DNA of 64,000 bases from Escherichia phage FL18. Below are positions 5,755 to 57,935 of this stretch, in pieces (position 1 is the first letter of the stretch; each line of letters begins with the position of its first letter). The position numbers and the translations under genes are program-made. The stretch is taken from sequence record PP400780; one strand, given 5' to 3'. The notes under the pieces are model-generated. The model had not been told where the DNA came from. It saw only the letters and a program-made list of their open reading frames with translations, and searched no databases.

Positions 5755-5811
5755 TGTACAACCAAGGATGGTTGGAGTATAATGAATCTATCTTAACGAG
5801 AGGAAAATATT

Positions 5812-6765
5812 ATGACACGTTCACATTACATTGATTATTTTGCAGGTCTTATCGCTAACGTTCATGCCCAACGTGCTTCTGGTTCATTAGGATTTGATGT
5901 TCCACACCGAGTTGTAGTAAGTGGTATTCTTCGCGATTTTGGTACATACACAGGCCAAGAAAATCATATCTGTAAAGATACTCAGAATGCGTATTCTCAT
6001 TCATTAGGGACACTGCTTCAATGGTTCAAACGTTCTCGTTTATTATCTTCGACTGTAGCTCGCGATAACATTAAAAACTTTATGAAGCCGAGCTTTATTA
6101 AATCTGCGACATCTAAAACCGATTTGGTTGAATTCACTATTGTTAATGATGTTAAAAAGACTCATTTGGCTGATTGGTTATCTACCATTCCTGAAACTAA
6201 ATTTGCTGATAAATTTGCTTGTGAATTCAATAACCAAGTGAATATGCTTTTTAAACATTCTCGTAAATTATTTACAGGTGGCGATGGTCGTACAAATAAA
6301 GTTCATGCTAAAGATTGGGTTACTGCAGTATTCAAACCAACCGGTAATGGTAACGCATCATTGTCAATTGATATCCAGGTTCCTTATTACTACTCACGTA
6401 ATCTCGGTACCATGAAAGCCGAAGAAATTAATAAGCGCAACAAAACCGTTCGTTCGCTGTCTTATAAACTTTGTACGATGTTACAGATTATGGATGTTGT
6501 TGAAATGTTCGACGAAACCGAAGATAACGGTTCAATGTTATTCAGTTCTAATATTCGAATTAAGCTGAAGAACCCTAATACATATAAACCTAAGCCTATT
6601 AAAGAACCTAAAGTAGAAAAAGTTGATAACTTAAGAGAAGAACGCGAATATCTCAAATCTCGTCTGAAAGAAGTCGAAGCCCAGATTGCAGAACAGACTA
6701 AATCGTTAAAAGCTCTGAATGCGAAAGCGGATGGTTTACGAAATGCCATTGAGGTATTGAAATGA
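5812..6765 (+). CDS. hypothetical protein with C-terminal coiled-coil-like region
   Basis: 317-aa ORF with GAGG SD; preceded by GTACAACCAAGGATGGTTGGAGTATAAT promoter cassette. Confidence 0.5.
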   Translation: MTRSHYIDYFAGLIANVHAQRASGSLGFDVPHRVVVSGILRDFGTYTGQENHICKDTQNAYSHSLGTLLQWFKRSRLLSSTVARDNIKNFMKPSFIKSATSKTDLVEFTIVNDVKKTHLADWLSTIPETKFADKFACEFNNQVNMLFKHSRKLFTGGDGRTNKVHAKDWVTAVFKPTGNGNASLSIDIQVPYYYSRNLGTMKAEEINKRNKTVRSLSYKLCTMLQIMDVVEMFDETEDNGSMLFSSNIRIKLKNPNTYKPKPIKEPKVEKVDNLREEREYLKSRLKEVEAQIAEQTKSLKALNAKADGLRNAIEVLK

Positions 6766-7076
6766 AAAAGCGTCTATTAGAAGACATTGCAGCTTCAAGT
6801 AATTCCAGTTTAATTAAAATTATTATGGCCGGTGAAGAAGACGATCTGGAAATGCGCGGAAAGATTCATGGTTGTGATGATTATAGCAGCCCTATTAATT
6901 GGAATTCTGTAATGGTCATGGTTGAACGCCGCGAACGTGCTTCTAAAAACGTTCCTAATTGCCCTGAATGTGGAACTGAACAGGTGCAATTGGTCCATTG
7001 GCAGACTAATAATCTTCGTTATAAATGTCGCCATTGTAAACACCGATTTGACCGAGAAGAAAATGACCAAGCGTAA
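6762..7076 (+). CDS. zinc-ribbon protein
   Basis: CPECG ... CRHC paired Cys motifs near C-terminus. Confidence 0.5.
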
Positions 7077-7221
7077 AGAATATATGGAGACTGCTGAAAA
7101 GGCAGTCCGTGAATTAGCAATAGCTTATTATAATGAACATGGTAAATTTCCTGATAGATACAGCGTGCTTAAATCAGCTTTAACTCGTTCATATAAAAAA
7201 TATGCTATCAGAAGTAAGTGA
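7063..7221 (+). CDS. hypothetical small protein (52 aa)
   Basis: in-frame ATG inside ORF-track entry 6922..7221; the upstream part of that entry overlaps the previous gene. Confidence 0.3.
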
Positions 7222-7307
7222 TATTATATACAAACATAAAGAACAAACGGGCCAAAGTCTTGATTACGACGAGACTTTTAAACAAGTACTAGGAATTAAG
7301 GAATAAT

Positions 7308-7571
7308 ATGTTTAAAGTATATGGTTATGATAGCAACATCCATAAATGTGTGTATTGCGATAATGCAAAACGTCTTTTGACCGTGAAGAAACAGCCATTT
7401 GAATTTATCAATATTATGCCGGAAAAAGGTGTTTTTGATGATGAGAAAATTGCTGAGCTTCTGACTAAACTAGGTCGTGATACTCAAATCGGCTTGACAA
7501 TGCCTCAGGTATTTGCTCCTGATGGAAGTCATATTGGTGGATTTGACCAACTGCGAGAATATTTTAAATGA
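7308..7571 (+). CDS. nrdC: glutaredoxin/thioredoxin (T4 NrdC-like)
   Basis: 87 aa, CVYC active-site motif, near-identical to recalled T4 NrdC sequence. Confidence 0.85.
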   Translation: MFKVYGYDSNIHKCVYCDNAKRLLTVKKQPFEFINIMPEKGVFDDEKIAELLTKLGRDTQIGLTMPQVFAPDGSHIGGFDQLREYFK

Positions 7572-7903
7572 ACGATATTGATTTTGCCAAAGCATATAAA
7601 TTTGTAGCAACTCTTCTCGGCCCTGACGCTCCTACTAAGCTTGAAGTTTTAAATTCGATTCCGACTTCATTGGTTCGAGATGCTGAAATATGGACATGGG
7701 ACGACCCAGCTGTTTGTGAAGACCTGTACATTCTGATGAATGACATGATGGTTAAAAAGCCTGAAACAATGGTTACTATTACTGTTGAAGAATATAATCG
7801 CCTACAAGCCATCGAAGAGCTTCTGTGGAATGTTGAATCTGATTTGCCATCTGGGCTAGAATCCTGGGTTGATTATGAAGAGCTCAATAAGCTCCGCGGT
7901 TAA
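7568..7903 (+). CDS. hypothetical protein (111 aa)
   Basis: ORF translationally coupled to nrdC (ATGA overlap). Confidence 0.45.
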   Translation: MNDIDFAKAYKFVATLLGPDAPTKLEVLNSIPTSLVRDAEIWTWDDPAVCEDLYILMNDMMVKKPETMVTITVEEYNRLQAIEELLWNVESDLPSGLESWVDYEELNKLRG

Positions 7904-8004
7904 ACCGTGGTATTCGGCTCGACTGTCTCCCATCGAGCCAGACGTCGAAACAGTTTACAACGACGAAGAAACATGTTATGATGAGCCTTCAATAAATGAA
8001 TTAA

Positions 8005-8202
8005 TTGATATGGAAATGGGAAGAGATTATTATGCAAGTTAAATTATTGTACCGTTTATTAAAAAATGGCAAGCATGATTGGTATTTGCTTATTAAAACC
8101 GATCAGAATTTTTTCTCCGGACACCCATTTACAGTTCGTCCTACTAAACGTCAGCTTCGCAAAGCTAAACGTTCTCATCGTAACTTTTATAACGTTTACT
8201 AA
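8005..8202 (+). CDS. hypothetical small basic protein
   Basis: C-terminal motif VRPTKRQLRKAKRSH resembles C-terminus of ORF 35942..36154 (VRPTKRQIRQEKRKF). Confidence 0.35.
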   Translation: MIWKWEEIIMQVKLLYRLLKNGKHDWYLLIKTDQNFFSGHPFTVRPTKRQLRKAKRSHRNFYNVY

Positions 8203-10203: not shown

Positions 10204-10670
10204 ATTATGACAGAATATACCCGTGTTGCTTTGTGAATGGCCCTGGATGCAGGGTCGTTCTTTTCGTTACAGGTTGTTTGCATAAATGCGAAGGGTGTTA
10301 TAATAAATCAACATGGAATGCTAGAAATGGTGTTCCATTCACTGGTGAAACACTAGAACAATTAATTGAATGTTTGAATAATGATTATATAGAAGGATTG
10401 ACTATAACCGGAGGTGACCCTCTTTATCCTGATAACAGAGACGTGATTCACTCTGTGGTTCAAACTATTAAAAATCTTTATCCCAATAAAAGCATTTGGT
10501 TGTGGACAGGATATAAGTTTGAAGATATTAAACAACTAGAAATGCTTAAATATGTTGATGTTATTATTGATGGGAAGTATGAGAAAAATCTTCCGACTAA
10601 AAAGCTGTGGCGAGGATCAGATAATCAGCGACTTTGGTCAAATACCGATGTGGTGTGGAAACATGATTAA
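10200..10670 (+). CDS. nrdG: anaerobic ribonucleotide reductase activating protein (radical SAM)
   Basis: 156 aa from ATG at 10200 (MNYDRIYPCCFVNGPGCRVVLFVTGCLHKCEGCYN); matches recalled T4 NrdG. Confidence 0.85.
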   Translation: MNYDRIYPCCFVNGPGCRVVLFVTGCLHKCEGCYNKSTWNARNGVPFTGETLEQLIECLNNDYIEGLTITGGDPLYPDNRDVIHSVVQTIKNLYPNKSIWLWTGYKFEDIKQLEMLKYVDVIIDGKYEKNLPTKKLWRGSDNQRLWSNTDVVWKHD

Positions 10671-10785
10671 ATTGAATTATATTATGGATACTATAAATGA
10701 TATGATTTTTCATTTTGGTCCAGAATTTTATTCGCAGTATAGTTTAGTGCTTATCAATGCTTGGTTAATCAATTAAGGGTAAAAT

Positions 10786-11001
10786 ATGTATAAATTTCGT
10801 AAAGGTTTAGCTGATTTTCTTACAACTGTAACATTCTTTCTGTTTATGGCAGTTGGAGCTATTTTCCTTATTCCTTTTATTGCTATATTTTTCGTGATTA
10901 GTTTGATTTCTCCAGAAAAAGGACTATCTTCTAGTGAGTTCAATGAGCGTCTGGATAAAATTACTAACAAGCTGAATGCGGTTCTTGATAAAAAGGATTA
11001 A
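10786..11001 (+). CDS. small membrane protein (71 aa)
   Basis: hydrophobic core LTTVTFFLFMAVGAIFLIPFIAIFFVISLI. Confidence 0.45.
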   Translation: MYKFRKGLADFLTTVTFFLFMAVGAIFLIPFIAIFFVISLISPEKGLSSSEFNERLDKITNKLNAVLDKKD

Positions 11002-11003
11002 TT

Positions 11004-11315
11004 ATGATTAGTTTTGAGCGGTATGTAGTAGAGAGTTGGAATGGTTTTGATATGTTCGGTAATGACTATTATTTCTATGAATGTAGTCTGAACCCAAGCT
11101 TCTGGGCTGGACGTGAACAAGACCTCGAAGAAATCAACGCTCGTGCCGATTTGTTAGGTGAACTGCCTACGGTTTATTTTACCTTTGATGAATCCGGCTT
11201 CGTTATCCAGGTTTATTTTCCTGAAGAAAACTCTGGTGAGGATTCTGTTAATCCTCCTTATTGGGCTTACCAAGGAATTATTTCTCGTGGAACAAAACTC
11301 GAACTTAAAGAATAA
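11004..11315 (+). CDS. hypothetical protein (103 aa)
   Basis: ORF-track entry, early-operon orientation. Confidence 0.45.
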   Translation: MISFERYVVESWNGFDMFGNDYYFYECSLNPSFWAGREQDLEEINARADLLGELPTVYFTFDESGFVIQVYFPEENSGEDSVNPPYWAYQGIISRGTKLELKE

Positions 11316-11316
11316 G

Positions 11317-11610
11317 ATTGAAGTCTATGGAATTCCAGATGAAGTAGGTCGTTGTCCTGGATGTCAATCAGTTACAAAACTTCTAAAGGAGCTCAATGCT
11401 CCTTTTACTTTCTATAAAGTTCTTACAAATAATGGTAAGATTGAGTATGATCGTCCACTGATTGTATCTCTTGCTAAACGCGCTGGATTCACATCTCTTA
11501 ACATTCGTTATCCAGTCATTTTCATTAATGATTCTAGACAAAAGAATATTAAACACTTCAAAGAAACTCTCATTTCACTTGGATATGATAGAGATATCAT
11601 AGAAGATTAA
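11317..11610 (+). CDS. glutaredoxin-like protein (NrdH-like, CPGC motif); start codon uncertain
   Basis: IEVYGIPDEVGRCPGCQS redox motif; no in-frame ATG/GTG after upstream gene stop, possible ATT start at 11317; syntenic with T4 nrdH. Confidence 0.45.
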   Translation: MEVYGIPDEVGRCPGCQSVTKLLKELNAPFTFYKVLTNNGKIEYDRPLIVSLAKRAGFTSLNIRYPVIFINDSRQKNIKHFKETLISLGYDRDIIED

Positions 11611-11613
11611 GAC

Positions 11614-11634
11614 GGGCCCTCTGGGCCTTTCTTT
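11614..11634 (+). terminator. stem-loop GGGCCC-TCT-GGGCC followed by T-rich tract
   Basis: inverted repeat immediately after stop at 11610. Confidence 0.5.
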
Positions 11635-11704
11635 CTCACATTCTGTATATTACCATTCTAAGCTATCGTTCCTTTCTTATCATTCCCTAAAATATTTTTC
11701 ACAA

Positions 11705-11742
11705 AGTTGTTTACAACGAGCTCAAACCGTGGTATTATTAAC
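11705..11742 (+). promoter_or_regulatory. T4-type early promoter (GTTTACAA ... TATTATTA)
   Basis: aaagttgtttacaacgagctcaaaccgtggtattatta. Confidence 0.5.
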
Positions 11743-11768
11743 ATATGAATTGCCTTTGAGGATTTGAT

Positions 11769-11951
11769 ATGGTTGTGGTTGATAAAGAAATTAAAAAGGG
11801 ACAGTATTATCTTATTAATGGTAATGCTGTTCGCGTTACCTACGTAAATGGTTATGATGTTTATTATCTTATACTTAAGTTACATAAACACATGATTTGT
11901 GACCGTGCTGTATTTAGTTCAGTTGCTAAGGAAATTAAACTCCATGGGTAA
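11769..11951 (+). CDS. hypothetical protein (60 aa)
   Basis: ORF-track entry following promoter. Confidence 0.4.
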   Translation: MVVVDKEIKKGQYYLINGNAVRVTYVNGYDVYYLILKLHKHMICDRAVFSSVAKEIKLHG

Positions 11952-12237
11952 AACGTATCGTCGTAAAGACTTAAAAGTGCGTGATTATGACTATTTCGGA
12001 AAGCGTAAAGCTCCTGACGGTGTAAGTCATAAAGATATGGTTGAAAACATTTTTCGCTCAGATAAATGGCGTAGAATGAAAGGTATTGATTCAGAAGTTA
12101 AAGATGAGTTAAATCGTCAATTACGCGGTGAAGTAAGAAAGTTGAAAAAATCAGTTTACATTGACGATGATTTTGATTATAATACTTCTCAACGAGTTGC
12201 TAAACGTAAATCAAACGAGTGTTATCGTTACAGCTGA
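11944..12237 (+). CDS. hypothetical basic protein (97 aa)
   Basis: in-frame ATG (MGKTYRRKDLK...) within ORF-track entry 11899..12237. Confidence 0.45.
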   Translation: MGKTYRRKDLKVRDYDYFGKRKAPDGVSHKDMVENIFRSDKWRRMKGIDSEVKDELNRQLRGEVRKLKKSVYIDDDFDYNTSQRVAKRKSNECYRYS

Positions 12238-12376
12238 GGAAAATATGAATATCAAACGCATGCTTTTTAAGCAAGGGCTATATACTTTAAATGTTACTCC
12301 AAAAGGCGATACAACTAAGTGGTCAGTAAATGACTGGATTAAATTTATTGATGAAAACGGTAATTGGGAAATTTAA

Positions 12377-12577
12377 ATGAATCCTGAATCTAAATTATCG
12401 CAGCGAATTGCTGAAGAACGCGCCAAATTTTTCCAGAACATGAAACACAATGGTATTGAGGATGAAGTTTTTCTAAATTGGTTCTGGAATAATAAGTATG
12501 CAGCATGTGAAGGAGCTTTGTCATTGTCAGTCGCAATGATGTACGAAGGCTGGAAGGGTGCCAAAAAGTTTAGCTAA
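12377..12577 (+). CDS. hypothetical protein (66 aa)
   Basis: ORF-track entry; followed by terminator. Confidence 0.45.
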   Translation: MNPESKLSQRIAEERAKFFQNMKHNGIEDEVFLNWFWNNKYAACEGALSLSVAMMYEGWKGAKKFS

Positions 12578-12595
12578 GGGCTTCGGCCCTTTTTG
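12576..12595 (+). terminator. rho-independent terminator (AAGGGC-TTCG-GCCCTT-TTTT)
   Basis: perfect 6-bp GC stem, TTCG loop, T-tract. Confidence 0.6.
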
Positions 12596-12630
12596 GATAA
12601 TAAAATTTTTAACGTAATTGAGGATAATGT

Positions 12631-12957
12631 ATGACTATTCAAATTAAAAACGCCATCAATTCTTACGCATATGATAAAGTAGTTTCTTTGCTAGAAAAAG
12701 GCGATATTGTAACTCCTCAAATTTTGGATAAATGGGAAAAAGAGCTTCATCAAATGATGAAACAGAATGATCAGAAGATTGGACGCAACACTGTACGTGA
12801 ATTGTTGGTTCAATATATCTTGTCAGAATTTGATGTTAAAGCTTTTGGTGTAGAATCTAAAGCTTATCAAAAGCATGAAATTTCCGATAAAACTATTCGT
12901 CGCATGAAAAATCAACGCAAGAAAAAAATTGCAGACCTGAAAATTACTAAGGTATAA
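12631..12957 (+). CDS. hypothetical protein (108 aa)
   Basis: ORF with GAGGA SD upstream. Confidence 0.45.
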   Translation: MTIQIKNAINSYAYDKVVSLLEKGDIVTPQILDKWEKELHQMMKQNDQKIGRNTVRELLVQYILSEFDVKAFGVESKAYQKHEISDKTIRRMKNQRKKKIADLKITKV

Positions 12958-12959
12958 TT

Positions 12960-13175
12960 ATGAACGAAGCTCTTATTAACGATTTGCGTCTTGCTGGATA
13001 TGAAGTAAATACAAATGGCATTGGTTTAACTCAAATTGAAGGAAACGGATTCATCCTTGAGTATGAATTTAGCCAATGGTGGTTATATGCCAATTACGGC
13101 GAATTGATTGAATATGTTGACCAATTTGATTCACTAGATGCAGCTCTTGAAGCGGCTAAGTTGATGAATGTATGA
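12960..13175 (+). CDS. hypothetical protein (71 aa)
   Basis: tightly packed ORF. Confidence 0.45.
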   Translation: MNEALINDLRLAGYEVNTNGIGLTQIEGNGFILEYEFSQWWLYANYGELIEYVDQFDSLDAALEAAKLMNV

Positions 13176-13441
13176 AATTTATTAATATTTCTATTACTAT
13201 TGAAAATTATGGCATTTTCTATGTTGACCAATACATGAAAATTTCATTTTTCCCAAATAAGACTGGTGTTGGATATTGGGAAAGTCATGTTTCTGAATTA
13301 AATGAAAGTGAATATGTTAGCACACATGAAAAGTTTTTAGACTTTTTATATCATGCAGATTTAACTAGTCATTATATAGATATTCATGAATTTAAAAAGA
13401 TGATGGAGAAAGTGTTCCAAGCATACTGTTTACTTAGATAA
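13172..13441 (+). CDS. hypothetical protein (89 aa)
   Basis: ATGA-overlapping ORF. Confidence 0.45.
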   Translation: MKFINISITIENYGIFYVDQYMKISFFPNKTGVGYWESHVSELNESEYVSTHEKFLDFLYHADLTSHYIDIHEFKKMMEKVFQAYCLLR

Positions 13442-50246: not shown

Positions 50247-52064
50247 ATGATTAAAAATGAAATTAAGGTATTGACAGATGTAGAACATATTAAGAAACGT
50301 AGTGGTATGTATATTGGTTCTTCGGCTAAAGAAGCACATGAGCGTTTTTTGTTTGGTAAATATCAACAAGTTGAATATGTTCCTGGTCTGGTTAAATTAA
50401 TCGATGAGATTATTGACAACTCGGTTGATGAAGCTATTCGTACATCATTTAAGTTTGCAAATAAAATTGATGTGCAAATTAAAAATAATCAAGTTTCGGT
50501 GGAAGATAACGGACGTGGTATTCCTCAAGGTTTAGTTACTGACCAAACAGGTGAACAAATTCCTGGTCCTGTAGCGGCCTGGACTATTCCAAAGGCTGGT
50601 GGTAACTTTGGTGATGATTCTGAACGCAAGACTGGTGGTATGAACGGCGTCGGGAGTAGTTTAACTAATATCTTCTCTACGTTGTTTACAGGCATCACGT
50701 CAGATGGCGAAAACGAAATCACTGTTAACTGTTCAAACGGAATGGAAAACAAATCATGGTCTTCTAAGAAATCTAAAGGTAAAGGCACTAAAGTAATCTT
50801 CACTCCTGATTTCTCTTCATTTGAAGAACATAATTTATCTCAAATTTATTTAGATATTACTTTAGACCGACTTCAAACATTGGCAGTCGTTTATCCTGAT
50901 ATCAAGTTCACATTTAATGGTAAAAAGGTTGATGGTAATTTTAAACGATTTGCTAAACAATTTGGTGAAGATAACATCATTCAAGAAAATGATAAAGTCT
51001 CTATAGCATTCACAACATCACCAGATGGCTTCCGTCATTTAACTTATGTGAATAACATCCATACTAAAAATGGTGGCCATCATGTTGAATGCGTAATGGA
51101 TGATATCTGCGAACATCTTTTGCCGGGTATTAAAAAGAAATATAAGGGTATTGAAGTCACTAAAGCTCGTGTTAAAGAATGCCTCACAATGTTGATGTTT
51201 ATTAGAGACATGAGCAACATGCGTTTTGATTCTCAGACTAAAGAACGTTTAACGTCAACGTATGGTGATATTCGTAATCATATCCAATTAGATGCTAAGA
51301 AAATTGCTCAGGCACTTCTTAAAAACGAAGCCTTGATTATGCCTATTGTTGAAGCAGCATTAGCTCGTAAATTGGCAGCAGAAAAGGCTGCAGAAACTAA
51401 AGCAGCTAAAAAGGCAACTAAAGCTAAGGTTCATAAGCATATTAAAGCTAACCAATGTGGTAAAGATGCAGATACGACATTGTTTTTAACAGAAGGTGAT
51501 TCGGCAATTGGTTATCTCATTGATGTTCGTGACCGTGAACTACACGGCGGATTCCCATTACGTGGTAAGGTGATGAATAGCTGGGGTATGTCATATGCTG
51601 ATATGATGAAGAACAAAGAGCTCTTTGATATCTGTGCTATCACAGGTCTTATTCTTGGTGAAAAGGCAGAGAATACGAACTATCGTAATATTGCAATTAT
51701 GACCGATGCCGATCACGACGGTCTTGGAAGTATTTATCCTGCTTTGCTTGCTTTCTTTAGTAATTGGCCCGAATTGTTTGAACAAGGACGTATTCGCTTT
51801 GTTAAAACACCTGTAATTATTGCACAAATTGGCAAAACTCAAAAATGGTTTTATACTGTAGCTGAGTATGAAGAAGTTAAAGATACACTGCCTAAGCATA
51901 GTATTCGATACATCAAGGGATTAGGCTCCCTTGAAAAGTCAGAGTATCGTGAAATGATTCAGAACCCTGTGTACGACGTAGTTAAACTTCCTGAAAATTG
52001 GAAAGAACTCTTTGAAATGTTGTTGGGTGATGATTCAGAACTTCGTAAAGAATGGATGTCCTAA
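50247..52064 (+). CDS. 39: DNA topoisomerase II large subunit (fused gene 39 + gene 60 equivalent; GyrB-like ATPase + Toprim)
   Basis: 605 aa single ORF; GHKL motifs (EIIDNSVDE, EDNGRGIP) and C-terminal MTDADHDGLGSIYPALLAFFSNWPELFEQGRIRF matching recalled T4 gp60; no interruption. Confidence 0.9.
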   Translation: MIKNEIKVLTDVEHIKKRSGMYIGSSAKEAHERFLFGKYQQVEYVPGLVKLIDEIIDNSVDEAIRTSFKFANKIDVQIKNNQVSVEDNGRGIPQGLVTDQTGEQIPGPVAAWTIPKAGGNFGDDSERKTGGMNGVGSSLTNIFSTLFTGITSDGENEITVNCSNGMENKSWSSKKSKGKGTKVIFTPDFSSFEEHNLSQIYLDITLDRLQTLAVVYPDIKFTFNGKKVDGNFKRFAKQFGEDNIIQENDKVSIAFTTSPDGFRHLTYVNNIHTKNGGHHVECVMDDICEHLLPGIKKKYKGIEVTKARVKECLTMLMFIRDMSNMRFDSQTKERLTSTYGDIRNHIQLDAKKIAQALLKNEALIMPIVEAALARKLAAEKAAETKAAKKATKAKVHKHIKANQCGKDADTTLFLTEGDSAIGYLIDVRDRELHGGFPLRGKVMNSWGMSYADMMKNKELFDICAITGLILGEKAENTNYRNIAIMTDADHDGLGSIYPALLAFFSNWPELFEQGRIRFVKTPVIIAQIGKTQKWFYTVAEYEEVKDTLPKHSIRYIKGLGSLEKSEYREMIQNPVYDVVKLPENWKELFEMLLGDDSELRKEWMS

Positions 52065-52090
52065 GCTCCTTCGGGAGCTTCATTTTAATT
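52063..52090 (+). terminator. stem-loop AAGCTCC-TTCG-GGAGCTT followed by T-rich tract
   Basis: inverted repeat overlapping gene 39 stop. Confidence 0.5.
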
Positions 52091-52106
52091 TTAATAAGGC
52101 TTAATT

Positions 52107-53207
52107 ATGAAAGTTATGTTTATCCCATCTCGCGCAGTCCCATTTAACCCAGAACGTGTACAAGGTGGTCTTGAAGCAGTACATTTAAATGTGTTGAAAT
52201 ATCTTGTGTCCATCGGTGCTGATATTGATTATATCGGCTTTGATAATGACACGTTTGGTGACTGGAAGGTTAATCATCATCCTGTTGGTCATCTGACTAA
52301 ATTCAGTCTAGGTATGAGTTATACTATGGCTCGTAAGATTGTTGAACTAGCCGGCATTAATGAGTACGATTTCGTTGTTACAATGGAACCGACCAAACTA
52401 ACCGTTCAGGCAATTAAAGACGCAGGTCTCTCTAAAGTTCATAAGAATTTTATGGCAACACCATTTGAACCAGTATCTCGTGGCATTGTTCAAATTTGGG
52501 ACCAGACTATTCAAATTCATAAGAACGGTGGTAAGAGTTATGCTCCTACTAAAGCCTTCCGTGAATTTGAACGCAAATATTGTTATATGACTTCAGGTCT
52601 GACTGACAAAATTGATTATGATTATTGGCGAGCAAATCCGTTGTTTGAAGCCGAAGATTATCCGGTTATTTGTTTGAATGATAAACCTGAAGTTCTTCCG
52701 GCGACGGATCTGATTATTAGTGCACAACGTTATGACACTAAAATGCGTCGTACTGATGTTGCTCTTGAAGCGATTAAAGCACTAGGCGAAAATGGTGCAG
52801 GATACTGTCCAAGCAAATGGGCGCCACCGGCTAAATATCCTGTTATTATTGATGCTCCACACAGTGAAATTATGGAACGTCTTAAAACAGCTAAAGCACT
52901 TATTAATACGTGTCCTGACACAGGTACGGTAGAGAATAGTTCTATTGAAGCCATCTCTAAAGGTGTCCCTGTAATCCAGTTAGTTTTTAAGGATTATCCT
53001 CATGCGACATTTGAATACGACCCAGATACTGTGCGTGTAGAAATTGATTCCTCTACTCCTAAGAAAGAAGTAGTTGCGCTTTACACAAAAGCTGTATTAG
53101 AATTCACTGACACATACGAAGCTCGAGTTAAACGTGCTGAAGCTGTATGGAAGAAGTATAACCGAGATGCAGTTGTTGCGATGTGGGATAAAATCTTCAC
53201 AGCGTAA
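52107..53207 (+). CDS. putative glycosyltransferase (GT-B fold, GT4-like)
   Basis: N-terminus MKVMFIPSRAVPFNPERVQGGLEAVHLNVLKYL and C-terminal ENSSIEAISKGVPVIQ resemble GT4 N-terminal and EX7E-region motifs; judged by eye. Confidence 0.45.
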   Translation: MKVMFIPSRAVPFNPERVQGGLEAVHLNVLKYLVSIGADIDYIGFDNDTFGDWKVNHHPVGHLTKFSLGMSYTMARKIVELAGINEYDFVVTMEPTKLTVQAIKDAGLSKVHKNFMATPFEPVSRGIVQIWDQTIQIHKNGGKSYAPTKAFREFERKYCYMTSGLTDKIDYDYWRANPLFEAEDYPVICLNDKPEVLPATDLIISAQRYDTKMRRTDVALEAIKALGENGAGYCPSKWAPPAKYPVIIDAPHSEIMERLKTAKALINTCPDTGTVENSSIEAISKGVPVIQLVFKDYPHATFEYDPDTVRVEIDSSTPKKEVVALYTKAVLEFTDTYEARVKRAEAVWKKYNRDAVVAMWDKIFTA

Positions 53208-53299
53208 ATCCTGAATAGCCTGAGGCACTATTACACATAAGATGATAGATTATATGGTCTTTAGTAATAGTGCCCTAGGAATCTACTGAAGAGAATATT

Positions 53300-53500
53300 A
53301 TGAGAACATATAACGTGGACTTGGAACTTTTTGATAAAGCAGTGCTCCGGGAATTCCGGCTTATCCAAAGATTTTTTGATATCGAGTCAGCAGAGTCCTT
53401 TAAAGAACGCTTTAAAGAAATTCGATATAAAATACAAACCGATACAGCTACTAAAGAAGAACTTCTCGAAGTGGCAGAAATTTTTAAACGTAACTTGTGA
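53300..53500 (+). CDS. hypothetical protein (66 aa)
   Basis: ORF-track entry. Confidence 0.45.
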   Translation: MRTYNVDLELFDKAVLREFRLIQRFFDIESAESFKERFKEIRYKIQTDTATKEELLEVAEIFKRNL

Positions 53501-53512
53501 TGAGAGAAAAAT

Positions 53513-54325
53513 ATGATTATTGAAACGGCTAAAGAAACGATTATTGGTTCTGGTGGTAAAAGCACAGCATTTACTATTCAAGGCAATAGCAAAGTTTATA
53601 AGATTTTGTCTAATGACCTTTATACAAACAAAGAATTGGCTTGTGTACGTGAATTAATCACAAACTGTATCGATGGACAAATTCTTAATGGTTGCACTGA
53701 TAAGTTTATTGTTCAGGCTCCAGGTCGTTTAGACCCACGTTTTGTAGTTCGAGACTTTGGTCCTGGTATGAGTGATTTCACCATTCGAGGTAATGACGAA
53801 GAGCCAGGAATCTATAACTCATATTTTGCTTCAACTAAAACATCGAGTAACGATTTCATTGGTGGATTCGGACTCGGCTCTAAAGCTCCACTAGCATATA
53901 CCGATACGTTTAACATTACTTCTTATCATAATGGTGAAGTTCGTGGTTATGTAATTTATCAAGATGACAGTGGTCCACAGATTAAGCCAACCTTCGTAGA
54001 TAAGATGGGTCCTGATGACCGGACCGGCGTTGAAGTAGTTGTGCCTGTTAACCCAGAAGATTTTGAAAAGTTCGCATCCGAAATTGCATATGTTATGCGT
54101 CCTCTAGGTGATATTGCAGAAGTTCGCGGTGTTAAAGATATCAAATACTTTCCTGAATTCGATGATGTTTATTTAGCCAAGGAAGCTCCATGGGGTGAAC
54201 GTGGTAATATCATGGCTGTTTATGGTGGTATTGTATATCCAATCGGAAGTGTTATTAAAGAACAAACCTGGATGATGACGCGATGCACACTACGGCTGGT
54301 TAGAATGCAACGAAGTTGTTATTGA
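53513..54325 (+). CDS. rIIA: rIIA-like protein, N-terminal GHKL ATPase domain (apparently truncated/frameshifted)
   Basis: GHKL N-box ELITNCID, G1 box DFGPGM, G2 box GGFGLGSK; only 270 aa before stop versus about 725 aa in T4 rIIA. Confidence 0.6.
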
Positions 54326-54467
54326 AATCCCACCGGTAGATGCAGAATATCTTGAAGAAGGAGACCGCATTTATTTTGGCGAACTACACATCAGAGGTAT
54401 CTATGGTAAAGACGAACTTGGGGCTGTTGAGGCTGAAGAGTCTTCCGACATTTATCCTGTCGAATGA
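54279..54467 (+). other. open frame-0 segment plausibly continuing rIIA after a +1 frame change
   Basis: translation [40 protein letters not shown]... resembles recalled T4 rIIA region ...NWLSIRNEVNYIKFP... Confidence 0.35.
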
Positions 54468-54960
54468 GTTTTTGACTAGCGAAATGAAGGTTAAGATCGC
54501 TGATACTGCTCGGTACTCGTTGAAACAAGATCCAGACCAAAACAAAGAAGATGTAGTTCGACGTTGTAAGGTTGCGGTCTTTGCAGAGTATGTAGTAGCA
54601 AATTGGCTAGACGGATATGTTAATAAAGGTATTGAAGACGTAGAAGACCCGTACACGTATGCATGGGACGTGTTAGCCCATCCCAAGTATTGTGGAATTC
54701 GTGTAGAAGTCAAGACACACCAGATAGATTCTAAATGGATTTCGGTTACCACAGGATACAGTGGTGATTATCCGGGTGGTAATGGAATCAATATAGGGCC
54801 CTTCCTTAATCATCGAGTCGCAGATTGCATTATTATATTAGATGTCAAAGAAACCTCACCTGACGTCTTCTCTTATTCTATAAAGTTCGTGGGAGACCAT
54901 GAAGACCTAAAGAAAATCGTCCGTAAGAGCAACTACAACGGGTGGTATCTTCATCTTTAA
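54340..54960 (+). CDS. hypothetical protein in a third frame (possible rIIA C-terminal remnant or separate gene; weak PD-(D/E)xK-like signature)
   Basis: AWDVLAHPKYCGIRVEVKT contains D ... E-x-K pattern; first ATG downstream of the frame-0 stop is at 54481. Confidence 0.4.
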   Translation: MQNILKKETAFILANYTSEVSMVKTNLGLLRLKSLPTFILSNEFLTSEMKVKIADTARYSLKQDPDQNKEDVVRRCKVAVFAEYVVANWLDGYVNKGIEDVEDPYTYAWDVLAHPKYCGIRVEVKTHQIDSKWISVTTGYSGDYPGGNGINIGPFLNHRVADCIIILDVKETSPDVFSYSIKFVGDHEDLKKIVRKSNYNGWYLHL

Positions 54961-54970
54961 TTTCATAAAA

Positions 54971-55010
54971 ATGTTTACAACTAAGTAGGACTATGATATA
55001 GTAGTCCTAT
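54971..55010 (+). promoter_or_regulatory. T4-type early promoter with -10 in stem-loop (AGGACTA TGATATAG TAGTCCT)
   Basis: atgtttacaactaagtaggactatgatatagtagtcctatc. Confidence 0.5.
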
Positions 55011-55028
55011 CTAAAAGAGGATAACATC

Positions 55029-55292
55029 ATGAAATTTAAATTTTTCTACGCAAAACATAAAGTGACCGGTGAGTTTGTTTCAATGTACAACACTGTAGAT
55101 GACGAAGGGATGATTTATACTCATTTAAGTCTATCTCATTGGGACTCAGACGTGCCTTATATGTCATCTGAAGCCGAAATAACTCGTTTAGTTAATGGAC
55201 ATATGAACGACCATTTTGGTGTTATTCTTTCTAAAGACCTTAAAGAGGTTATCAACAAAGGATATATGGAACTCGCGGAAGTTGAGATATGA
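55029..55292 (+). CDS. hypothetical protein (87 aa)
   Basis: ORF-track entry with GAGGA SD. Confidence 0.5.
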   Translation: MKFKFFYAKHKVTGEFVSMYNTVDDEGMIYTHLSLSHWDSDVPYMSSEAEITRLVNGHMNDHFGVILSKDLKEVINKGYMELAEVEI

Positions 55293-55482
55293 GCTCTAAA
55301 ATGTGGATAGGAATATGGTTGCTTAGTATCCCAATGATTTGTATAATATTTTCAATTGTGTTGAGGTACTTATGAAAAATGCACTTCTTATTGTACTAAG
55401 AACAATTTGTGATGCGTGGTTTTACATTGCATGTTCGTTCACTGGAACATGGTTGGCTTTAACATATTTTAATGTAATTTAA

Positions 55483-55525
55483 TTGTTTACATCAAGGTAG
55501 GATTATGGTATAGTAGTCCTATCAA
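55483..55525 (+). promoter_or_regulatory. T4-type early promoter with -10 in stem-loop (same cassette family as 36895 and 54971)
   Basis: ttgtttacatcaaggtaggattatggtatagtagtcctatc. Confidence 0.5.
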
Positions 55526-55542
55526 ATCAAGAGGAAAACAAA

Positions 55543-55743
55543 ATGGCTAAGCTTTTTAAAGATGTTGAAATTGGTGAAAAATTTGTCCTGAATAATGGTC
55601 AGCAGCTTATTCGTGTAGCTTCTATAGCCGGACAAACTCATAACTGTATCGCCCCAACGTGTTGGGCCCGATTCTTTATTGAGGATGACACCGAATGTTT
55701 AACTGTTGAAGAGCTTTTTGAACGTTCTGATATGGCCGAATAA
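55543..55743 (+). CDS. hypothetical protein (66 aa)
   Basis: ORF-track entry. Confidence 0.5.
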   Translation: MAKLFKDVEIGEKFVLNNGQQLIRVASIAGQTHNCIAPTCWARFFIEDDTECLTVEELFERSDMAE

Positions 55744-55745
55744 AA

Positions 55746-55781
55746 TTGTACAAACTCTTGAGAGCAGAGTATAATGCTCTC
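55746..55781 (+). promoter_or_regulatory. T4-type early promoter with -10 TATAAT between inverted repeat GAGAGC / GCTCTC
   Basis: ttgtacaaactcttgagagcagagtataatgctctc. Confidence 0.5.
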
Positions 55782-55819
55782 ATGGATTACAAAAACATTA
55801 ATCAATTGAGGAAATTAGC

Positions 55820-56266
55820 ATGACCAAATATTTAACTCGTAAAGACCTTCTGGCAGTTGGCGGTGAAGTTGTTGCAGTAGTTCGTAATGGCGAATACGGT
55901 TCTGAAGTTTCTAAAGAGTTTCGTTCTCGTGAAGGTTTTTACTTCTTCGTTAAAGGTTCATCTGATTGGCGACAAGTAGCAGCACGATTCTTTGTAGGAC
56001 GTCAACGTTCTAAACAAGGGTTGGATGCAATTCTTTCTCATATTCGTCAAGGCCGTTCGCAACTAGCCCGTACCATGGGCACTAACAATATTGAATATGA
56101 TGTAATCTTTGTTTCAGCTAAGAACATGAAACCTCTGACTACTGGTTATGGTAAAGGTCAATTGGCTCTGGCGTTCACTCGCAATCATTCATCAGAATAT
56201 CAAACACTCACTGAAATGAACCGTCTTCTGGCAGATAATTTCAAATTCATTCTGCAGAGTTACTAA
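55820..56266 (+). CDS. ndd: nucleoid disruption protein Ndd-like
   Basis: 148 aa; GFYFFVKG ... [30 protein letters not shown] ... [38 protein letters not shown] resembles recalled T4 Ndd; synteny upstream of 52. Confidence 0.5.
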
Positions 56267-56273
56267 TTTATAT

Positions 56274-56305
56274 AGGCCTATTAAGTTGGGCCTTTAATTT
56301 ATTTT
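56274..56305 (+). terminator. stem-loop AGGCC ... GGCCT followed by T-rich tract
   Basis: inverted repeat after ndd-like stop. Confidence 0.4.
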
Positions 56306-56318
56306 TGAGGTAATTAAA

Positions 56319-56465
56319 ATGATAGCATGGATTATTGCATTGCTGTGTTGGTCGTTTTTATTCGTTAACACTTTAGTTACAGGCGAAACAACAGTATTTC
56401 AACAGGCGGTATCACAAGGTACCTTAGCGGTCTTAGCTCTTCTTAACGTATTAAAAGGCGAGTAA
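56319..56465 (+). CDS. small membrane protein (48 aa)
   Basis: manual translation MIAWIIALLCWSFLFVNTLVTGETTVFQQAVSQGTLAVLALLNVLKGE. Confidence 0.35.
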   Translation: MIAWIIALLCWSFLFVNTLVTGETTVFQQAVSQGTLAVLALLNVLKGE

Positions 56466-56605
56466 TGATTAAGAAAATCTTAGCAGGAGCCTTCGGGCTC
56501 TTGTTGTTGCTTACGGTTCTGTACTACGGTGTGATGTTTGGGCTAATCCAAGTAGTGCTTTTCATTTCAGATGTTATAATGGTTATTCGTTCATTAATAT
56601 GGTGA
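56465..56605 (+). CDS. small membrane protein (46 aa)
   Basis: manual translation MIKKILAGAFGLLLLLTVLYYGVMFGLIQVVLFISDVIMVIRSLIW; ATGA-type overlap. Confidence 0.35.
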   Translation: MIKKILAGAFGLLLLLTVLYYGVMFGLIQVVLFISDVIMVIRSLIW

Positions 56606-56609
56606 AAAT

Positions 56610-57935
56610 ATGCAATTGAATTCTCGTAATCTAAAAAGTATTATTGATAACGAAGCCTTAGCATATGCGATGTACACCGTTGAAAACCGTGCAATCCCAA
56701 ACATGATTGATGGATTTAAGCCGGTTCAACGTTTTGTGGTTCATCGTGCGTTAGATTTGGCTCGTGGTAATAAAGAAAAATTTCATAAACTTGCGTCAAT
56801 TGCAGGCGGTGTTGCAGATTTAGGTTATCACCATGGTGAATCTTCTGCACAAGATGCAGGTGCATTGATGGCTAACACATGGAACAACAACTATCCACTG
56901 TTAGATGGCCAAGGCAACTTTGGTTCTCGAACAGTCCAAAAAGCTGCAGCATCTCGTTATATTTTTGCTCGTGTAAGTAAAAATTTCTATAACGTATATA
57001 AAGATACTGAATATGCTCCAGCTCATGAAGATAAAGAACACATTCCACCAAAATTCTATCTTCCTATTATTCCGACAGTTCTTTTGAATGGTGTCTCTGG
57101 TATTGCAACCGGTTACGCAACAAATATTCTGCCTCATAGTTTTAAATCAGTCAAAAAGGCTGTATTACAAGCTCTTCAAGGTAAAAATGTCACTAAGCCA
57201 AAAGTTGAATTCCCGGAATTCCGTGGTGAAGTACATGAAGTTGATGGGCGTTATGAGATTCACGGAACATATAAGTTCACATCTCGCACTCAAATGCAGA
57301 TAACTGAAATCCCATATAAATTCGACCGTGAAACGTATGTGAGTAAGGTTCTTGACCCGTTGGAAGACAAAGGTCTAATCTCATGGGAAGATGATTGTGG
57401 TGAACACGGCTTTGGGTTTAAGGTGAAGTTCCGTAAAGAGTACTCGCTTCCTGATGATGAAGAGCTACGTCATGAAAAAATCATGAAAGATTTTAGTCTC
57501 ATCGAACGTCGTTCACAAAACATCACAGTGATTAATGAAAAGGGTAAATTAGCTGTCTACGATAACGTAGTGGACTTAATCAAAGATTTTGTTGAAGTCC
57601 GTAAGACTTACGTTCAGAAACGTATTGACAACAAAATCCTTGAATCTGAAAAAGCATTTAAACTGGCTTTTGCTAAGGCACACTTCATCAAAAAAGTTAT
57701 CAACGGTGAAATTGTGATTCAGGGCAAGACTCGTAAAGCTTTGACTGAAGAGCTAGCACAAATCGAAATGTATAAAGAACATGTCGATAAACTGGTAGGT
57801 CTTAACATCTTCCATATCACTTCTGACGAAGCACGTAAACTAGCAGAAGAAGCTAAAGCTAAGAAAGAAGAAAATGAGTATTGGAAGTCTACTGATGTTG
57901 TGACAGAGTATACTAAAGACTTGGAGGCACTTTGA
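56610..57935 (+). CDS. 52: DNA topoisomerase II medium subunit gp52 (GyrA-like)
   Basis: 441 aa; AMYTVENRAIPNMIDGFKPVQR and active-site region matching type IIA topoisomerase A subunit; recalled T4 gp52. Confidence 0.9.
   Translation: MQLNSRNLKSIIDNEALAYAMYTVENRAIPNMIDGFKPVQRFVVHRALDLARGNKEKFHKLASIAGGVADLGYHHGESSAQDAGALMANTWNNNYPLLDGQGNFGSRTVQKAAASRYIFARVSKNFYNVYKDTEYAPAHEDKEHIPPKFYLPIIPTVLLNGVSGIATGYATNILPHSFKSVKKAVLQALQGKNVTKPKVEFPEFRGEVHEVDGRYEIHGTYKFTSRTQMQITEIPYKFDRETYVSKVLDPLEDKGLISWEDDCGEHGFGFKVKFRKEYSLPDDEELRHEKIMKDFSLIERRSQNITVINEKGKLAVYDNVVDLIKDFVEVRKTYVQKRIDNKILESEKAFKLAFAKAHFIKKVINGEIVIQGKTRKALTEELAQIEMYKEHVDKLVGLNIFHITSDEARKLAEEAKAKKEENEYWKSTDVVTEYTKDLEAL

Follow-up and report, generated by a model that had tools for sequence, protein, structure and literature searches.

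The rIIA and rIIB genes occur in all relatives of T4 except the marine cyanophages, and what they do is still poorly understood (PMC2993671). The rII system has a role in lysis inhibition and protects against RexAB-type exclusion, to which rII mutants succumb and wild-type T-even phages do not (PMC8594841). Laboratory rII deletions of T4, among them Benzer's r1589 and 1272 and the region-D deletions NB5060, rIIH23 and rIIPT8, are viable without rIIA and/or rIIB sequence, and have short-direct-repeat breakpoints in the neighbourhood of genes 39 to 52. Deletions in T4 arise precisely at "minihomologies" of 3-13 nt in a UvsX-dependent manner, with longer and GC-rich repeats favoured, and they recur in independent lineages (PMC8262927).

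The locus described here lies in a 64,000-nucleotide stretch (hereafter the window) of Escherichia phage FL18 (sequence record PP400780), a Mosigvirus from piglet faeces that was isolated on E. coli MG1655 (PMC12032242), and the region is RB69-like T-even phage DNA of this genus. Its flanking gene order is that of the intact rII loci of F2 (RIIA/RIIB, YP_010068875 / YP_010068876) and RB69 (NP_861691 / NP_861963), with RIIA reduced from 737 to 270 aa and the 311-aa RIIB absent. Like the T4 laboratory deletions, it concerns a phage that is viable without rII sequence, with a short direct repeat at its breakpoint and the same gene 39-52 surroundings. Unlike them, it comes from environmental Mosigvirus isolates (RB69-like, with arabinosyl-hmC DNA) and was not selected in the laboratory; it also ends inside ORF272c and spares denB, whereas NB5060, rIIH23 and rIIPT8 remove denB.

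Structure of the deletion and its junction

All genes of the interval lie on the forward strand. The gp39 topoisomerase is encoded by a single 605-aa ORF (50247-52064) and is followed by an RB69ORF003c homologue (52107-53207) and by rIIA.1 (53300-53500), an intact 66-aa upstream neighbour untouched by the deletion (Pfam T4_RIIA1, E 2e-30, positions 1-65/67); ndd (55820-56266) and gp52 (56610-57935) stand at the other end. In intact F2 the order is rIIA.1, rIIA (737 aa), rIIB (311 aa), a 95-aa RB69ORF272c (Pfam DUF7418), denB and then more genes. The gene 39-gene 52 interval, which a first-pass annotation made from the sequence had correctly described as short (about 4.5 kb), measures 4,545 bp in the window versus 7,076 bp in F2. 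The same annotation had proposed that a single rIIA gene runs broken across three reading frames between 53513 and 54960, and had named alignment to the rIIA of related phages as a check. That alignment went against the proposal: the window lacks 2,524 bp, rIIA codon 258 is fused to another gene, and the downstream frames belong to genes other than rIIA.

By blastn, window positions 52001-54288 correspond to positions 5802-8089 of the F2 locus, and window positions 54280-57000 to positions 10614-13332. The two collinear blocks share 9 bp, GCGATGCAC, present in the window as a single kept copy at 54280-54288 (identified from the F2 alignment and from both parental sites), and the intervening 2,524 bp are missing. 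Intact phages carry this sequence twice, once in rIIA (...GATGATGAC GCGATGCAC TACAGC...; codons 256-258) and again about 2.5 kb downstream in ORF272c (...CATCCTG GCGATGCAC ACTA...; codons 31-33). The repeat is perfect (9/9) on both sides in G2469, RB69, F2, JS09 and SF; the window and phage AV116 have one copy each. A minihomology deletion is recognised by a short direct repeat that borders the missing DNA on both sides in the intact parent and survives as a single copy, as seen here, and we are highly confident that this is a naturally arisen rII deletion allele that lost 2,524 bp between its two GCGATGCAC copies.

The missing segment comprises rIIA codons 259-737, the whole of rIIB, the terminator after rIIB and ORF272c codons 1-33. 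In F2, the gap between rIIB and ORF272c holds a strong intrinsic terminator (GGGGACTTCGGTCCCC followed by T6), which is also annotated in PhAPEC2 and G2469; this terminator is not present in the window. Queries with RIIA residues 259-737 and with F2 RIIB returned no tblastn match within the 64-kb window, so rIIA has no adjacent rIIB, and the absence of rIIB before gene 52 reported in the first-pass annotation holds. Because 2,524 is not divisible by three, RIIA enters the wrong frame of ORF272c for 12 codons and ends at a stop at 54325.

We propose that the starting point was an ancestor whose locus had the usual Mosigvirus order (rIIA.1, rIIA, rIIB, terminator, ORF272c, denB), and that recombination or slippage involving the two GCGATGCAC copies would have removed the 2,524 bp, joining rIIA codon 258 to codon 34 of ORF272c, a different gene. 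The outcome resembles the T4 minihomology deletions of Wu et al. (2021, mBio, PMC8262927), in which one copy of a short GC-rich repeat is likewise kept and the intervening DNA lost; in that work Cas9 or Cas12a cuts provoked the deletions and UvsX was needed, whereas the mechanism suggested here is read from the anatomy of the junction.

Products encoded across the junction

The truncated rIIA (53513-54325) encodes 270 aa, in agreement with the first-pass annotation, and its product is XAO15106.1 of FL18. Codons 1-258 are native (53513-54286) and are followed by 12 out-of-frame ORF272c codons and a stop at 54323-54325; residues 1-258 are 99.6% identical to F2 RIIA. The match to PHROG 612 (RIIA, the T4-type membrane-integrity protector and lysis inhibitor) covers profile positions 1-257/725 only (E 1.7e-116). 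The GHKL motifs that had been noticed in this ORF are borne out, as N51, D54, D81-x-G83-x-G85, G117/G120/G122 and K124 are invariant across a 53-member RIIA alignment, and the N-box, G1 and G2 motifs of a GHKL (Bergerat-fold) module are all present. An AlphaFold model of residues 1-258 (pLDDT 82.7, pTM 0.81) matched the N-domains of Hsp90, TRAP1 and GRP94 and topoisomerase VI-B (Foldseek E about 1e-10, probability 1.00). A sequence search of solved structures with the stub gave weak GRP94 matches at the N-box alone, and Pfam and NCBIfam returned no match for it; its identity rests on PHROGs, on alignment to annotated relatives and on the fold search. Full-length RIIA has about 700-740 aa, with a nearly invariant G...SRE motif and a C-terminal region. 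In the 53-member alignment the G...SRE motif lies directly after residue 258, and thus outside the stub, which also lacks the C-terminal region.

The tandem TGA codons that had been noted in frame 0 at the end of the native segment (54273-54278) are indeed present, and are simply the normal rIIA codons tgg-ATG-ATG-ACg read out of frame; intact phages have them as well. Directly behind them, frame 0 is open from 54279 to 54467, as had been reported, but this stretch does not continue rIIA. It encodes RB69ORF272c residues 34-95 plus the stop, matching Pfam DUF7418 (positions 37-99/101, E 1.6e-20), PHROG 2237 (positions 36-105/106) and, by tblastn, F2 ORF272c. This remnant of 62 codons has no start codon, its first 33 codons having been deleted, so that a complete 95-aa ORF with its own start no longer exists; the ORF list contains no frame-0 ORF of at least 40 aa at this place.

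The third frame is open from 54340 to 54960 (206 aa), again as reported, and it too is separate from rIIA. It contains an intact 185-aa denB (endonuclease IV) at 54403-54960, although the first-pass annotation had found no denB-sized ORF before gene 52. The gene retains its full length and its own ribosome-binding site, with an AGAGG Shine-Dalgarno sequence at 54393-54397 upstream of the ATG at 54403. DenB matches PHROG 1360 (DenB-like endonuclease IV) over positions 1-188/203 (E 5.4e-89), and annotations of PhAPEC2, NHEP11 and AV116 give the same 185-aa DenB/endonuclease. Its length is T4-like, and position 176 is a serine, as is Ser176 of T4 DenB, an equivalence that assumes collinearity with the T4 protein; Ser176 is described as critical in the T4 enzyme (PMC2175332). 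Pfam and NCBIfam gave no match for DenB, and its identity rests on PHROGs and on alignment to annotated relatives. The denB start lies 78 nt past the stop codon of the stub with no terminator between them, so denB is now probably transcribed by read-through from the rIIA promoters.

Carriers of the junction and competing explanations

A megablast search with positions 53200-55100 matched 159 phage records, nearly all of them Mosigvirus of E. coli or Shigella. The whole query was covered by AV116 only; in each of the other records the match breaks off after base 1,089 of the query and picks up again at another place in that record. This deletion is found in one of about 155-160 database Mosigvirus records. 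AV116 comes from pig waste in Denmark and aligns across the junction without gaps over 4,948 bp at 95.8% identity. The two genomes are otherwise distinct, with 96.4% identity over 53 kb, a longest identical tract of 605 bp, a gp39 that is 81% identical to that of the window and an extra homing endonuclease in AV116. No exact match to the junction was found in IMG/VR viral contigs or JGI metagenome contigs, and an IMG/VR search for related loci yielded three, all with intact rII. rII goes unmentioned in the papers on AV116 (PMC10844046) and FL18 (PMC12032242).

The protein cluster to which the stub belongs gave access to other rII deletions. In a 157-kb Logan contig (SRR8797781), 1,929 bp are missing in frame, with the junction homology GTTGCA, leaving RIIA residues 1-294 fused to the C-terminal portion of RIIB, an arrangement like that of T4 r1589. 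A 6-kb contig (ERR15003903) has a 2,338-bp deletion that leads from rIIA codon 167 into rIIB, with imperfect 7/9 homology. Among sequenced Mosigvirus-like genomes there are therefore three or more distinct rII deletion alleles, one of which is present in two divergent genomes. A further sequence, in which rIIA runs to codon 166 and then passes into a GlnE-like bacterial gene, was set aside as a probable chimeric metagenome assembly.

Whether the allele arose once or twice is a finely balanced question. An independent origin of the FL18 and AV116 deletions at a minihomology hot spot has, in our judgement, an even chance of being correct. On the left of the junction the flanks of the two carriers diverge within 12 bp, on the right within 21-33 bp, and each flanking haplotype is found in intact phages; the left 200 bp of the window are those of G2469 (100%) and the right 200 bp those of mar005p1 (99.5%), both of which are intact. 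The identical tract spanning the junction is just 40 bp, which is unremarkable given that 78% of identical bases genome-wide lie in tracts of at least 40 bp, and no allele is exclusive to the two carriers. Recurrence has precedent in the independently recurring T4 minihomology deletions (PMC8262927), and the repeat is a favourable one: among the 104 direct-repeat pairs of at least 9 nt in F2 that could delete part of rII, GCGATGCAC belongs to the only three with a GC content of 60% or more. The same census weighs on the other side, since with 104 such pairs on offer, and more than 1,000 of at least 7 nt, an exact coincidence requires a strong hot spot; the deletion is seen in a single database record besides FL18 and in neither metagenome collection.

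The reading that we rank next, and consider a serious possibility, is a single deletion event later moved between backgrounds by T-even homologous recombination, so that the copies of the allele in circulation among pig-associated Mosigvirus would be identical by descent. The junction is identical base for base, both carriers are of pig origin (faeces or waste), and the region is mosaic at the 200-bp scale among all relatives, which lets flanks be exchanged. Recent local spread should nevertheless leave a long identical tract, and the carriers have neither an extended common haplotype around the junction nor exclusively shared alleles.

Compatible with the deletion, though distinctly improbable in our estimate, is the idea that the GHKL module of 258 residues is produced and has retained or acquired a function, with selection maintaining the allele. 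The promoter-proximal part of the gene, its start codon and all ATP-binding motifs are intact, and the module is confidently predicted to fold. The loss of the G...SRE motif and the entire C-terminal region, as well as of the genetic partner RIIB, speaks against it, as does the size of RIIA elsewhere: among the best 150 RIIA representatives almost all have 600-830 aa, and the few short ones may be fragments. The stubs of the window and AV116 differ by 21 synonymous and only two non-synonymous codons, with no private substitutions in either, and this could be taken to indicate function. We rejected the count as a sign of it: every stub variant allele is also found in intact phages, and few non-synonymous differences are to be expected if stub variation comes by recombination with intact rIIA alleles.

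The first-pass annotation had left the choice between a genuine pseudogene, an assembly indel and recoding; the first of these comes closest to the deletion allele that we favour. An assembly or sequencing artefact, in which rII is intact in the phage and 2.5 kb were dropped by the assembler, is very unlikely because AV116, sequenced independently, has the identical junction. AV116 is otherwise a different genome, and neither of the two sequences was derived from the other by reference-guided assembly. Assemblers do not collapse 9-bp repeats. The 165,790-bp FL18 genome is also smaller than most intact relatives (typically 167-170 kb), and the two contigs above are independent assemblies with different rII deletions and the same kind of junction. 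In favour of an artefact, the phage collections behind the two junction-bearing genomes appear to be related; the AV116 and FL18 collections share phage AV119, which suggests the same laboratory, and a common laboratory influence on both pig-associated carriers may exist. Programmed recoding, by which a frameshift near 54273-54325 would yield a longer functional RIIA, has the three overlapping open frames and the TGATGA at the junction to recommend it and can be dismissed, since the window encodes neither RIIA residues 259-737 nor RIIB, the downstream frames code for DUF7418 and DenB instead of continuing the same protein, TGATGA is ordinary rIIA coding sequence, and the deletion accounts fully for the arrangement.

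Predicted phenotype and significance

Under the deletion reading, we infer that the phage is rII-null, because the stub lacks the G...SRE motif, the C-terminal 479 residues and its partner RIIB. By analogy with rII deletion mutants of T4, it should be Rex-sensitive and fail on hosts with lambda RexAB-type exclusion, and should show altered lysis inhibition on B-type hosts. Growth on lambda-free K-12 should be normal, in keeping with MG1655 as the isolation host of FL18. Natural rII-null isolates are uncommon, yet they stem from an event of an expected kind, since rII is non-essential and such deletions form by a well-known mechanism; no new mechanism is involved.

The view that selection maintains the rIIA(259)-to-ORF272c(33) deletion as a natural polymorphism in pig-gut Mosigvirus populations, or that it recurs there readily, is speculative, and we hold it to be unlikely. 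If it were true, phages in nature could do without the near-universal rII genes under some conditions, perhaps where they seldom meet Rex-like exclusion, and an advantage could come from the loss of rII, from the loss of the terminator upstream of denB or from the retained GHKL stub. Pairs of rII-null and near-isogenic intact phages, such as FL18 and its G2469-like counterparts, would then amount to a natural experiment on rII function.

For annotation, the locus corrects a trap, in that the 270-aa stub is labelled "rIIA lysis inhibitor" and denB is easily missed. For phages considered for biocontrol, it points to a predicted host-range liability through Rex-type exclusion. Environmental RB69-like phages can be without rIIA and rIIB, the classic genes of phage genetics, and the alleles described here offer natural material for the study of rII function and of deletion hot spots.

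Further rII alleles in assembled contigs

Two assembled contigs carry other rII deletions. In a 157-kb Logan contig (SRR8797781; L021 6001-7224), rIIA codons 1-294 are joined in frame to the C-terminal part of rIIB, encoding a 407-aa rIIA(1-294)::rIIB fusion that arises from a 1,929-bp deletion with a GTTGCA repeat at the junction. This fusion is the naturally occurring equivalent of the r1589 fusion that Benzer described in T4. The third rII deletion allele (L023 3636-4447; Logan ERR15003903) removes 2,338 bp across imperfect junction homology (7/9), leaving an rIIA that ends at codon 166 with 6 extra residues as a tail; after it comes a C-terminal fragment of RIIB, 75 aa long. Codon 166 is also where rIIA is fused to a GlnE-like bacterial gene in a further contig (L022 6001-7625; ENA ERZ1745275 NODE_1373), with a breakpoint only a few bases from the left breakpoint of L023 (position 7814 versus 7811 in phage F2); this join is probably an artefact of chimeric metagenome assembly.

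Genes and signals flanking the locus

A strong intrinsic terminator lies immediately 3′ of rIIB in the intact phage F2 (L002 10478-10493), with equivalents in the intact Mosigvirus genomes PhAPEC2 and G2469; this rIIB-distal terminator is absent from the window. The conserved denB ORF spans 185 aa and overlaps the end of ORF272c, whereas many records annotate a 158-aa denB starting at an internal ATG, and denB annotation is therefore inconsistent across GenBank records.

On the other side of the locus, gp39 is a single 605-aa ORF (window 50247-52064, + strand; paired with L001 1245-3865) and, like its RB69 counterpart, has no gene-60 split. Its identity to gp39 of AV116, the pig-waste phage sharing the window's rII junction, is only ~81%, against 96-98% for the adjoining DNA, and AV116 carries a homing endonuclease immediately downstream of gp39, an insertion that the window lacks. 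Next comes a 366-aa homologue of RB69ORF003c (window 52107-53207, + strand; full-length match to PHROG 8302), a gene linked to hmC DNA arabinosylation in RB69 (PMC6024577). Compared with AV116, its central 500 bp (window 52303-52802) are hypervariable, with 68 mismatches and most of the gene's 18 non-synonymous codons, while the far better conserved flanks differ by 5-7 mismatches per 250 bp.

A conserved motif beyond the RIIA ATPase module

In the 53-member RIIA family alignment, a G...SRE...T motif is nearly invariant directly past the GHKL module, in the columns just after window residue 258, the last native RIIA residue; its Mosigvirus form is GELDVAPSREALS. We know of no previous description of this motif. 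It is retained across RIIA proteins sharing just 33-64% identity, and it may be functionally important.
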